From NCBI GenBank assembly GCA_937928735.1, contig CALFVF010000008.1:1971-65970 (forward strand): a stretch of 64,000 nucleotides of DNA, read 5' to 3'. The DNA comes from an uncultured Verrucomicrobiales bacterium (lineage in GTDB: Bacteria; Verrucomicrobiota; Verrucomicrobiia; Verrucomicrobiales; Akkermansiaceae). Every line of letters starts with the position of its first letter. Positions within the stretch are counted from its first letter, which is position 1. A program made the position numbers and the translations under genes. The notes beneath the pieces are model-generated. The model ran no database searches and was not told the origin of the DNA. It saw only the letters and a list, made by a program, of their open reading frames with translations. Below are positions 25,250 through 29,793 of this stretch, one piece after another.

Positions 25250-26134
25250 ATGAAACAGTTGGTACTACGATTTCTACTCACCCTACTTGCGGTCTTGTCT
25301 GGCACTACGATCAGCGCTGCTGCAGTACAGGAAGCGCGTTGGGGAATCGTTTTTGAAAAAGCTTACGTCTGTGAAGCTAAACCATACGTTTCCGATGAAT
25401 GTATAGCCCCAAAGAAGACAGGGAGGGTTCTTTGCTTTGCCGCTGGAATTGAGGTGGCGACCTCTGAGGGAAGCATTCCGATCGAAGAGATCAAAGAGGA
25501 TGACCTGGTCTTGGCGTTTGACTTCGAAATCAGGGAAGTGTTCGAACGGGAAGTATATGAAAGCCATCATAGCTCCACCAAGGGATGGGTTCTGGTAACC
25601 ACCGATAAGGGCGATGAGATCTTAGCTACTCGGTTTCACAGATTTTGGATTAAGTGTGCTTCTGAGTGGATCGAAGCTATAGAGCTTGAGAGAGGAATGG
25701 TTCTCCAGCTTGCGTCGGGTGAGAATGCGACGATTATTTCGGTTAAGGCAAAGCTTCTGGATCGACAGGAGAAGGCCTATAATTTTGAGGTTCGAGATCT
25801 CCATAATTACTTCGTTGGAGAATCGAGAGCGTTGGGACTGAAGCTTGCAAACCAAGGATCCGAAGCTGCCGAGAGGTCAGCTGAAGCGATAACACTTGGG
25901 CAAATGAACAAGGCTAGGAGAATTCCTGGTGTGGATGCTGTGCATCTAACTTTGCCTCCTAATACTGGAATGTTCGACAATCCAGGAGTAAAGCCACATG
26001 CCCATGGTGTAGACCATAAGGGCAAGCCTTGGTCGGTGAATATTGATGGCACACCCCATAATATTAACACTAAGAAGGGCTCGATTCCGAAAAAGGTTAG
26101 GGAGACTCTTCGTGCAGCTGGTTGGGATTGCTAA
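25250..26134 (+). CDS. Compact polymorphic toxin: signal peptide + PT-HINT domain + 93-aa C-terminal toxin tip
   Basis: Hint from C62 (CFAAG..IEEIKEDDLV..ILATRFHRFW..EWIEA.EL..G..AYNFEVRDLHNYFVG) to N201; tip contains PHAH..NIDGTPH. Confidence 0.8.
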   Translation: MKQLVLRFLLTLLAVLSGTTISAAAVQEARWGIVFEKAYVCEAKPYVSDECIAPKKTGRVLCFAAGIEVATSEGSIPIEEIKEDDLVLAFDFEIREVFEREVYESHHSSTKGWVLVTTDKGDEILATRFHRFWIKCASEWIEAIELERGMVLQLASGENATIISVKAKLLDRQEKAYNFEVRDLHNYFVGESRALGLKLANQGSEAAERSAEAITLGQMNKARRIPGVDAVHLTLPPNTGMFDNPGVKPHAHGVDHKGKPWSVNIDGTPHNINTKKGSIPKKVRETLRAAGWDC

Positions 26135-26664
26135 TGACTGATAAAGAGATACAGCGAATACTGCGTGAAAACAGTTTTGGTTCTGCAGTAGAATCCTTTA
26201 TGGGAATGCCCGATAAAAGCATCTATATCACCCGGCATGTGTTCGAAACGCATCTGCGCGCAGGAGTAGATGCAATTGATGGCGTTTTTGCAGGATCTTT
26301 ACTTTTTCTGGAATGGATTCAGGAAGCAAAAACCCTTAATGTTTGCGGGGTTGGCTGGGGCGTAATTTCGTTAACTGTGACCGATTCGTGGCTGTCAGCA
26401 AGCGAAGCAGATCTACAGAAATTACGAGTTCCGGCACCCTATTTGTCGGTTACGTTGTTCAAGTTGCCCGTTGACGAGGAATTGCATTTACAAAAGAAAC
26501 CTGGATCTGAGGATGTTGCTCTAGGCGTGTTTGAAAATGTCGCTTGGTCGGGAGAATTGTTTAATCGGGAATGCAGGAAGAACCTCGATCAGTTTGATCT
26601 CTGGCGATATACGCCCCCTAAATCGCATGAGTTTGTTGAGCATTATTGGGTTGTTTATTCATAG
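26134..26664 (+). CDS. Putative cognate immunity protein
   Basis: Starts in a TAATG overlap with the toxin stop; soluble; no signal peptide. Confidence 0.65.
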   Translation: MTDKEIQRILRENSFGSAVESFMGMPDKSIYITRHVFETHLRAGVDAIDGVFAGSLLFLEWIQEAKTLNVCGVGWGVISLTVTDSWLSASEADLQKLRVPAPYLSVTLFKLPVDEELHLQKKPGSEDVALGVFENVAWSGELFNRECRKNLDQFDLWRYTPPKSHEFVEHYWVVYS

Positions 26665-26787
26665 ATCTTTGGAGGCATCCGGGAGTACATCGTTGTTTGA
26701 CAAAAGTGATGTCAAAAAGGGGGAGGAGACCCCGAAGGCTCAGGAAAGAAAAAAGAAAAAGAAAAAAAGAAAGGAGCTTGGAAAAAG

Positions 26788-26859
26788 TAGGCCTACTAGG
26801 ACTCGAACCTAGAATGACTGAATCAAAATCAGTTGTGTTGCCGATTACACCATAGGCCT
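26788..26859 (-). tRNA. tRNA-Gln (UUG)
   Basis: AGGCCTA/TAGGCCT acceptor stem, CTGA-TTTTGAT-TCAG anticodon arm, GGTTCGAGTCC; CCA not encoded. Confidence 0.93.
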
Positions 26860-27900: not shown

Positions 27901-28986
27901 ATGACGAACTCGATCACACAGCCTGACTTCGCGTATTTCTTTTTGAGTCTCATTCTAGAGGGGGCTCCTTACATTTTATTAGGCACCCTTATTAGTGGTT
28001 TTATTGATGTGTATATGCCCTCGGGTCTACACGAAAAAATCCTTCCTAAAAAAAAGGTGCCAGCCATTTTGATGTGTGGCCTCCTGGGCATCTTTATCCC
28101 GGTCTGTGAATGTGCTGTAGTGCCTGTGATTCGGCGCTTGGTGGCGAAAGGACTACCCGTGAGCTGTGCGTTTACCTATATGTTAGCCGCGCCGATTGTG
28201 AATCCCATCACATGGTTTAGTACGGCGACAGCATTCTCTGAGCAGCAGCAGTGGCTGGTGACATGGTCGCGTATGGGACTGGGCTACTTGATTGCTGTGA
28301 CAGTGGGTTTGATTCTAATGATAGTTCCCATTGAGAGAATCCTTAGGGACTCTCTTCTTAAGGTGATCCGCTCTGAGGGTGATCGTGTGGATGATGCGGA
28401 GTGCTCATCTCATTCTCATAGTGGTAAGTGCGGGCATCATGAGCACCATGATCATGCACATGCAGAGAGCTGCTGTGACCACGCACACCACCACTGTGAT
28501 CACAGTCATAGCCACGATCACGCGCAGGATCACAAAGGCCATAAGACTGAGAAATCTTCACCAGATCGACTCGTGCTTGCGATGCGTTCAGCGATGCGGG
28601 ACTTCATCGATGTCGGGGTGTACTTCTCTATCGGAGTGTCTCTGACTGTGCTCTTTAACTTATCCATTGCTGGAAATAATAGCGTGCTAGATGGTCTGGC
28701 GGCCAATGAATGGAGTGGTACCGCCACGATGATGGCACTTGCCTTTGTGCTGAGTGTTTGTAGTACCAGTGATGCCTTCATGGCAGCCACTCTGCATACC
28801 TTTAGTTATGGGGCGAAGATGGCCTTTATGGTTTTGGGCCCGATGCTGGATGTGAAACTCATTTTCCTCTACCAAACTGTGATGCGCGGGCGCTTTCTCC
28901 TCTGGTTGAGTCTTGGGTTATTTATTGGGGTCGGCCTGCTGTGTATTGGTTGGCAAGCTATTGTGGAGGTCATTTTATCGAGATAA
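27901..28986 (+). CDS. DUF318/YcgR-like metal permease with His/Cys-rich loop
   Basis: PVCECAVVPV, AAPIVNP, LSVCSTSDAF, GPMLDVK, and a ~50-aa poly-His insertion. Confidence 0.85.
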   Translation: MTNSITQPDFAYFFLSLILEGAPYILLGTLISGFIDVYMPSGLHEKILPKKKVPAILMCGLLGIFIPVCECAVVPVIRRLVAKGLPVSCAFTYMLAAPIVNPITWFSTATAFSEQQQWLVTWSRMGLGYLIAVTVGLILMIVPIERILRDSLLKVIRSEGDRVDDAECSSHSHSGKCGHHEHHDHAHAESCCDHAHHHCDHSHSHDHAQDHKGHKTEKSSPDRLVLAMRSAMRDFIDVGVYFSIGVSLTVLFNLSIAGNNSVLDGLAANEWSGTATMMALAFVLSVCSTSDAFMAATLHTFSYGAKMAFMVLGPMLDVKLIFLYQTVMRGRFLLWLSLGLFIGVGLLCIGWQAIVEVILSR

Positions 28987-29793
28987 ATGATGGAGCGTTT
29001 ACAGAGAATCTTGTTTTCCCTAGCTGTCATGACCTGGGGTGGGGCTCTCGTGTACTTGTATCAGTCAGGGCACGTTGTCTCCTATGTGAGTGAGAAGTTT
29101 CATTTAGTCTGTCTCATCGGGGGGCTCGCTATGTTAGTTCTTGGTCTCTTTAATCTACTGACTTCTGGAGTGGAGTCTTCCTGTCATCATGGGGATGAGT
29201 GCGGGCATGAGCATGATCATTCTGATATGAATCCCGTGATGTCTCTAGGGATCATGATTTTACCCATAGCACTCTCTCTGCAGTGGTCAGAGCATCGACC
29301 AAGTGAGGTGCTACTGGAGAATAAATCCACACAAGATGTGGATCCTGAGGCTCTTAGTTTTCTCAATAACTTACCACCATACACTCTGGAAACTCTTGAG
29401 GAGACGCGCAGCAAGAATGCTCAGGGTGCTTATCAAGTGAATATTTTTGAGCTCTTCTACTCTGCGGGAGATCGTGAGGTGGAGAAGATCTTTGATGGTC
29501 TGAGCTTTGAGACAGAAGGAAGAATTAGGGATGAGAAGCGGCGCAACCCTACAGGGAAGCGAATGCGCCTCTACCGCCTCCAAGGAACATGCTGCGCGGC
29601 GGATGCAATCGCGATTCCTCTGGGTCTAGAATTTGAGGGAGAACTCAGTGATATCCCGCATCACTCGTGGGTGAAGGTGTCGGGTGTGATGAGCTATGAG
29701 CAAGAAGGCAATCGTACCTATCCAGTTCTGCAAGTAACAACGATCGAAGAATCCACCGCCCCATACGGTGAGGACTTGTTTTCGACCCGCTAA
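28987..29793 (+). CDS. TIGR03943/DUF1980 (YcgQ-like) permease partner
   Basis: TM helices, CHHGDECGHEHDH, R...TCCAADA, WVKVSG; adjacent to the DUF318 gene. Confidence 0.8.
   Translation: MMERLQRILFSLAVMTWGGALVYLYQSGHVVSYVSEKFHLVCLIGGLAMLVLGLFNLLTSGVESSCHHGDECGHEHDHSDMNPVMSLGIMILPIALSLQWSEHRPSEVLLENKSTQDVDPEALSFLNNLPPYTLETLEETRSKNAQGAYQVNIFELFYSAGDREVEKIFDGLSFETEGRIRDEKRRNPTGKRMRLYRLQGTCCAADAIAIPLGLEFEGELSDIPHHSWVKVSGVMSYEQEGNRTYPVLQVTTIEESTAPYGEDLFSTR

Follow-up and report, generated by a model that had tools for sequence, protein, structure and literature searches.

A Sec-type mini-toxin leader joined to an Rhs-type Hint-tip cassette in a putative toxin-immunity gene pair of a marine Verrucomicrobiales bacterium

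We analyzed a stretch of 64,000 nucleotides, hereafter called the window, from an uncultured marine Verrucomicrobiales bacterium of the Akkermansiaceae (contig CALFVF010000008.1, assembly GCA_937928735.1). Two coupled open reading frames (ORFs) in the window, ORF1 and ORF2, had been read in an earlier note on this DNA as a small, self-processing polymorphic toxin with a nuclease-type tip, followed by its immunity gene. From its N-terminus, ORF1 is composed of a putative signal peptide, a short mature leader, a PT-HINT domain that lacks its last block, and a C-terminal tip (Table 1). The stop codon of ORF1 (TAA, 26132-26134) and the start codon of ORF2 (ATG, 26134-26136) overlap as TAATG, as described earlier, although ORF2 has 176 amino acids (aa) counted from this ATG, not 177.

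Table 1 Features of the ORF1-ORF2 locus (positions are those of the window).
Feature	Position	Strand	Remarks and basis
ORF1	25250..26134	+	294 aa; leader, truncated PT-HINT and tip; ORF list
Putative signal peptide, Sec-type, aa 1-25	25250..25324	+	Cleavage after S-A-A-A placed by eye
Mature leader part, aa 26-61	25325..25432	+	Leader alignments and leader HMM
PT-HINT, aa 62-194	25433..25831	+	PF07591 match; last block (GVLVHN) gone
C-terminal tip, aa 195-294	25832..26131	+	Unnamed toxin-tip family; tip profile
ORF2, candidate cognate immunity protein	26134..26664	+	176 aa from ATG; TAATG overlap and family HMM
tRNA-Gln(UUG)	26787..26859	-	ARAGORN

The N-terminus of ORF1, inspected by eye, resembles a Sec signal peptide, with K2 and R7 followed by a hydrophobic core from F8 to L16 and S-A-A-A at positions 22-25. 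The same n/h/c layout is seen in ten homologous leaders, in agreement with the Sec-type signal peptide and the roughly 35 further residues noted before. There is no conserved Cys in the lipobox position of the leader. Its mature part reads VQEARWGIVFEKAYVCE...APKKTGRVL and is common to a set of mini-toxins that have no Hint. We sought relatives of the leader in genomes of the same bacterial family, using ORF1 and then a leader profile. The sibling small ORFs are 35-48% identical to ORF1 over the first ~58 residues and then diverge completely. The leader hidden Markov model (HMM) matched genome G018 in two copies (E 1e-40) and genome G047 (E 3e-24), and a scan of JGI metagenomes together with a word-index search gave six further leader proteins, four of them on metagenome contigs and the others being P0022 and P0023. 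Besides ORF1, ten or more proteins in Verrucomicrobiales genomes and metagenomes carry the leader, and their tips are of at least eight kinds. It is rare: clear matches occurred in 4 of the 401 sampled genomes of the family, and a pattern scan through the genomes of 185,579 species added just one more genome. No family of Pfam or NCBIfam covers the leader, nor does any from PADLOC or PHROGs.

The sibling leader proteins are 120-175 aa long, and in them the leader is joined directly to the tip with neither a Hint nor a stalk; among the leader genes found, only ORF1 combines the leader with a Hint. One sibling carries a TreTu_C tip (PF24691, E 1e-37) and is followed by a TriTu gene (E 1e-8), another has an LHH nuclease as its tip (PF14411, E 1e-28) with a SUKH gene behind it (E 5e-21), and a third, with an unnamed tip, is followed by an RraB-family gene (E 1e-12). 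The tip of a further sibling is ADP-ribosyltransferase-like (NF041482, E 5e-13), one has a PIN-like end (weak match only), and several more siblings have unnamed tips. The occurrence of known families of tips and immunity proteins with these siblings shows that genuine antibacterial tips are carried by the leader. A search of Verrucomicrobia for the same leader on different tips, which had been suggested in the earlier note, was positive, with immunity genes following some of the tips. The stalk-less polymorphic toxin class proposed for Verrucomicrobia also stands, but, judging from these sequences, it is the leader on Hint-less siblings, not the Hint, that defines the class. Self-processing is not a class feature, since no other member has a Hint.

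Two further loci were noticed. The contig that carries the leader-TreTu gene (L035) also contains two small ORFs (809-1177 and 2280-2654) that share a second, different N-terminus, namely a signal peptide and then DFG(R/H)(W/S)S(I/L)AA(K/N), whereas their tails differ and a small ORF follows each of them. Another family of mini-toxin leaders may thus be represented in these arrays. In G047 (L023, 1312-3049), a leader ORF of 124 aa stands directly after an Rhs C-terminal fragment with its 77-aa downstream gene, and also adjoins a transposase-like gene of 386 aa. Such positioning of leader toxins beside Rhs cassettes would favour recombination of the type that we infer for the window.

The PT-HINT match in ORF1 is real: PF07591 matched aa 69-194 with E 1e-15 and 58.6 bits against a cut-off of 27.7. 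However, the domain is not the full PT-HINT of aa 62-201 that had been described, since it ends at residue 194 and GVLVHN is deleted. The match covers positions 2-127 of the 137 positions of the model, whereas that of the homologue P0004 covers 1-136. Aligned with the family consensus, ORF1 retains Cys62 (CFAAG) and T127-R-F-H130, and it keeps the 'DLHNYFVG' block. Compared with its closest relative, P0002, it shows an 11-residue gap exactly at GVLVHN and the linker: P0002 reads HNYFAGEQGVLVHNDTSPPPILGIQHANK, and ORF1 reads HNYFVGESRA-LGLKLANQ. The other homologues all have G-x-LVHN here, and the family consensus is HNYFVGxxGxLVHN.

Two explanations of this gap were considered and rejected. 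Both alternative frames contain stops at this place and the block is not encoded in any frame, so that a frameshift is rejected and the loss is an in-frame deletion. An assembly error is also rejected because the deletion is present in two metagenome assemblies. In both of these marine assemblies the ORF1-ORF2 pair is free of indels, being identical in one and differing by 8 single-nucleotide polymorphisms (SNPs) in the other, and the deletion is hence shared by a second strain; a protein identical to ORF1 is also present in a collection of 5.8 billion proteins. The remaining sequence 'LKLAN' does not serve as a substitute for block G, as it aligns with the conserved first helix of the tip, LLGLKLANKSA in homologues, and is helical in the structure model.

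In type A intein-like (BIL/Hint) domains, C-terminal cleavage takes place by cyclization of the terminal Asn with assistance of the preceding His (PMC4031507). The His-Asn block being deleted, canonical release of the tip is not expected, and we consider canonical self-release from ORF1 unlikely. The earlier model, in which a complete PT-HINT cleaves itself at its own C-terminus and frees a nuclease tip, would agree with the significant PT-HINT match and with the homologous toxins that do have such an arrangement. It now appears very improbable to us: the His-Asn block for Asn cyclization is absent, with Pfam positions 128-137 unmatched at the 11-residue gap, and the 'LKLAN' that comes next belongs to the conserved first helix of the tip and not to the Hint. 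Self-processing, as claimed for ORF1, thus fails on the deleted block as well as on the Hint-less members of the leader class. One could also think that the Hint works at its N-terminal side only, in the manner of Hedgehog or type B bacterial intein-like domains, forming a thioester at Leu61-Cys62 and cutting off the leader after export, so that the Hint-tip part would be the freed toxin. Cys62, the block B residues T127-x-x-H130 and the 'DLHNYFVG' block are all kept, as this would need, but it is the whole terminal strand that is missing and not two residues, so that the domain may not fold, and the other toxins of the leader family need no such cut. We regard N-terminal processing as rather unlikely. 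Instead, the tip most likely remains attached to a vestigial Hint, the remnant of which would act as a spacer.

The part of ORF1 behind the leader has relatives of another kind. The alignment of ORF1 with P0002 begins shortly before the Hint, runs to the C-terminus and comprises 262 columns with 42% identity; P0002 represents the terminal part of an Rhs protein, its frame being open to the contig start. Most of the tip-bearing proteins have an intact PT-HINT ahead of the tip. A recognizable Rhs core or YD shell precedes the Hint-tip part in P0002, P0009, P0013 and P0014; in P0018 the tip stands directly behind an Rhs core; and P0011, P0012 and P0017 are short 'orphan' copies with a truncated Hint. 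ORF1 itself gave no match to RHS_repeat or to the Rhs-associated core in Pfam/NCBIfam. ORF1 is thus of chimeric ancestry, and these alignments indicate that the cassette of Hint, tip and ORF2 comes from Rhs-type toxins. It had been considered that homologues with a longer stalk gene might reveal ORF1 to be a truncated orphan; Hint-tip parts do occur on long Rhs genes, but ORF1 is not a bare truncated orphan, having a leader of its own that stems from a different toxin family. The genome of the bacterium contains no other PT-HINT than that of ORF1, and the two Rhs proteins of this genome, encoded on other contigs, have neither PT-HINT nor leader. On this ground we rejected the possibility that the pair serves a resident Rhs gene as a spare cassette.

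Other arrangements of Hint domains were also observed. P0004 (469 aa; L003, ENA contig ctg318528_10x_l, 1-13410) has a signal peptide, a short piece that ends in an Rhs-core-like DPLGL, a complete PT-HINT and another tip. Its gene comes just after a tyrosine integrase, and a block of genes for a helix-turn-helix protein, proteins of 146 aa and 76 aa and a primase of 942 aa flanks it on either side, which looks like the tandem duplication of an integrative element. In G049, the closest genome, which is of the same genus, two ORFs (L011, 1420-1890, and L015, 898-1800) have only the C-terminal half of PT-HINT, with intact VWVHN, and other tips, and the N-terminus of one of these ORFs is hydrophobic. 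Both ORFs resemble Hint-tip cassettes that are orphaned or truncated.

The tip comprises the ~100 residues after the Hint rather than the 93 residues first assigned to it, and the His motif reported for it is indeed present, within PHAHG and WSVNIDGTPH. We searched 1.84 billion representative proteins with a tip profile and obtained 13 proteins at E<=1e-10, 12 of which bear the tip, always at the C-terminus; the family is thus rare, with some 13 clusters. The thirteenth protein and top profile match, P0007, is an adhesin of 4481 aa with an Ig-like (immunoglobulin-like) repeat, matched in 33 stretches; it was rejected as spurious, sharing only a hairpin motif, 'DGKTWSVNIPG'. Nine residues are invariant in the tip family: P249, H250, W261, N264, G267, H270, L287, G291 and W292. 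In the AlphaFold2 model of the tip (pLDDT, the predicted local distance difference test score, 81), two helices are followed by three strands and a final helix, and the invariant H250 lies at a strand start and H270 in a loop.

That the tip belongs to no named toxin family was confirmed by searches of HMM libraries, with no family in Pfam, NCBIfam, PADLOC or PHROGs. Weak matches of MelC1 to two of 14 members (E 0.009, below the cut-off) were judged to be noise. The tip profile had no match among PDB sequences, and Foldseek with the tip model gave best E values of 0.23 (PDB) and 0.37 (BFVD), with none below E 0.2 and template modelling (TM) scores below 0.4. Comparison with an LHH tip by hhalign indicated no relation (probability 0.1). 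His-Me finger nucleases (HNH/EndoVII; AHH, LHH, GH-E, Tox-HNH and others) would be recognized through one of their family models or through the beta-beta-alpha-metal fold, in which the catalytic His ends strand 1, and the tip matched none of these. We do not file it among them because the invariant His is at the strand start, not at the end. With no HMM, PDB-sequence or fold match, the nuclease-type tip of the earlier note is unproven; the invariant H...N...H pattern makes a metal or His hydrolase possible. We also noticed that the two tip members with Glu252 (P0018, P0019) do not have the final G-W-x-C, whereas all others have His252 together with the Cys (aa 252 and 294, window 26003-26005 and 26129-26131). 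This sample of two sequences hints at a joint role of H252 and C294, which may involve a metal.

ORF2 was placed in a family by synteny. Six other tip loci have readable DNA, and at five of them the gene that immediately follows the toxin belongs to one and the same family (pairwise E 1e-11 to 1e-28), which has the motifs WHIDRHV, PYLIIDDEWL and PPHVYVCL. ORF2 is 28% identical by BLAST to the gene downstream of the tip homologue P0017 (E 2.5e-6), and it is the sole match (E 8e-5) among 314 frames of the window to an HMM made from the five downstream genes. No Pfam, NCBIfam, PADLOC or PHROGs family matched it, and in a homology search by word index ORF2 had no match other than itself. ORF2 is a divergent member of an unnamed family and fits the role of a candidate cognate immunity protein, mainly because the pairing of the tip with this family is conserved. 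The new immunity family proposed earlier is accordingly found behind five other toxins with the same tip.

Three sequence features by which polymorphic toxins are recognized come together at this locus: a constant N-terminal trafficking module, the leader, on proteins with unrelated C-terminal tips; the same tip at the C-terminus of 12 other proteins with other carriers (Rhs core with or without PT-HINT); and a gene of the immunity family immediately downstream that co-varies with the tip. We propose, with a probability of about 0.65, that ORF1 and ORF2 represent a chimeric Sec-type polymorphic toxin and its immunity gene, in which the Hint is vestigial. The leader of ~58 residues, made up of the signal peptide and the stretch of ~35 residues, is the constant N-terminal module of exported mini-toxins with interchangeable tips. 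The cassette of Hint, tip and ORF2 is of a type normally found at the end of giant Rhs toxins or, as an 'orphan', next to them, and recombination would have joined it to the leader, displacing the earlier tip of the leader. In Rhs toxins the Hint frees the tip through cyclization of the terminal Asn, for which ORF1 has the block deleted. The ORF1 protein would be exported by Sec with the tip still attached, and the tip would then damage a competitor cell, possibly as a nuclease or another hydrolase, in view of the His, Asn and His that are invariant in it; a nuclease activity is unproven. Inside the producer cell, ORF2 would bind and block the tip.

Several points weigh against this proposal. 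The tip has neither a family nor a fold assignment, and its toxicity is read from position and association only. At one tip locus (L031) the downstream gene is unrelated, ORF2 fits the immunity family with a weak score (16.5 bits), and the structure model of ORF2 is poor (pLDDT 59), with no match in Foldseek. A periplasmic protein of ~270 aa would also have to cross the outer membrane and enter a target cell. The truncation of the Hint would fit a gene drifting from use as well, and so would the SNPs between the strains, of which ORF1 has 3 non-synonymous against 2 synonymous; the locus was found in none of the RNA runs searched.

These last points bring in the view that the chimera is a relic, a decaying fusion no longer deployed, whose ORF2 is maybe kept as protection against Rhs toxins of neighbours that have the same tip. 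The deletion of the catalytic block of the Hint would then be the first visible lesion; the between-strain SNPs, which fall in neither ORF2 nor the tip, and the absence from RNA runs would agree with this, as would the fact that the fusion of leader and Hint is seen in this one gene only. On the other hand, the frame, the signal peptide, the leader motif and all nine invariant residues of the tip are intact, the translational coupling to ORF2 is preserved, and two strains keep the same structure. In addition, the G+C content of the pair (0.46-0.48) is that of its surroundings with no composition shift, which argues against a recent import that has not been under selection. We consider a relic improbable, yet serious enough to be kept in mind, and favour a functional toxin-immunity pair.

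The genes upstream of the pair are secY, map and a gene for an NHL-repeat protein. A tRNA-Gln beside the pair had been noted correctly, but its orientation needs correction: it is on the minus strand and convergent with ORF2, the 3' ends of the two facing each other across 122 bp. We looked for att-like direct repeats around the pair and found none, and the ORF list contains no integrase adjoining it. Synteny with G049 covers the tRNA-Gln and the genes that lie past it, whereas the toxin side of G049 carries different genes. In this empty-site comparison, secY-map-NHL of G049 lies at a contig end, the contig stopping right after the NHL gene. Metagenome contigs of both runs fork or stop at the tRNA-Gln, which appears as a break in the assembly graph. 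The pair sits at a variable spot, and the tRNA-Gln marks a synteny break.

An A/G-rich tract (aggaaagaaaaaagaaaaagaaaaaaagaaagg; 26740-26786) is present between ORF2 and the 3' end of the tRNA-Gln, and several metagenome contigs of run X2 break within it. Farther on (27901-29793), two adjacent genes encode membrane proteins of 361 and 268 aa with long loops rich in His, Cys and Asp (HSHSGKCGHHEHHDHAHAESCCDHAHHHCDHSHSHDH); they resemble a metal-handling permease pair and are kept with the tRNA-Gln in the closest relative.

Three undescribed families, those of the leader, the tip and the immunity protein, would be added to the inventory of polymorphic toxins, and they come from the Verrucomicrobiales, which are little studied and abundant in the sea. 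The locus would be a natural example of cassette exchange, in which an Rhs-type Hint-tip-immunity cassette was captured by a mini-toxin leader, and its truncated Hint provides a natural test of whether self-cleavage is dispensable where there is no stalk. The very short leader poses the question of how toxins of this size get out of a diderm producer and into a target cell. As a speculation to which we give little weight, the stretch of ~35 residues might suffice by itself as an address tag, serving a route of export or delivery in Verrucomicrobiales that is as yet undescribed, and the truncated Hint, whose front end is kept, might cut the cargo from this tag after export. If this were true, toxins of ~100 residues that act in the cytoplasm (by ADP-ribosylation of EF-Tu or by DNA cleavage) could exit a cell with two membranes and enter a rival by a route that involves no stalk, Rhs cage, marker of type V or type VI secretion systems (T5SS/T6SS) or translocation domain.

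A signal peptide, a lineage-specific constant N-terminal domain and a HINT make up a recognized layout of polymorphic toxins of the Sec/type II secretion system (T2SS) kind (PMC3482391, Table 1 and section 37), and HINT is listed there among the processing domains of Sec-type toxins (PMC3482391, Table 1). The nearest known systems are MafB/MafI of Neisseria, Microscilla-N, APD1 and APD2 (Zhang et al. 2012, PMC3482391), with which the leader toxins share a putative signal peptide, a constant, lineage-restricted N-terminal module, interchangeable tips, an immunity gene directly downstream and the absence of an Rhs or filamentous stalk. They differ in that the constant part of the leader in the window is ~35 residues, not a globular domain, and has no Pfam/NCBIfam model; in that no mafA-like partner gene lies near the pair; and in that leader toxins occur in marine and aquatic Verrucomicrobiales and have 120-175 aa, or 294 aa with the Hint. 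With the Rhs toxins that close with PT-HINT and a tip, and with their orphan cassettes, the pair shares a homologous Hint, tip and downstream gene; ORF1 differs in having no Rhs repeats or core, a leader as its N-terminus and a Hint without GVLVHN. As a PT-HINT/type A BIL domain (PF07591; PMC4031507), the Hint of ORF1 scores above the cut-off and has the N-terminal Cys and the TxxH of block B, but differs in the deletion of the C-terminal His-Asn block. TreTu, a Salmonella Rhs effector, ADP-ribosylates EF-Tu (PMC9825190); the TreTu/TriTu and LHH/SUKH pairs are found on siblings with the same leader as ORF1, but not in the window, whose tip and ORF2 belong to other, unnamed families. The overall principle of a signal peptide, a lineage-specific constant N-terminus, a variable tip and a downstream immunity gene was laid out in 2012, and the pair described here extends this picture without overturning it.

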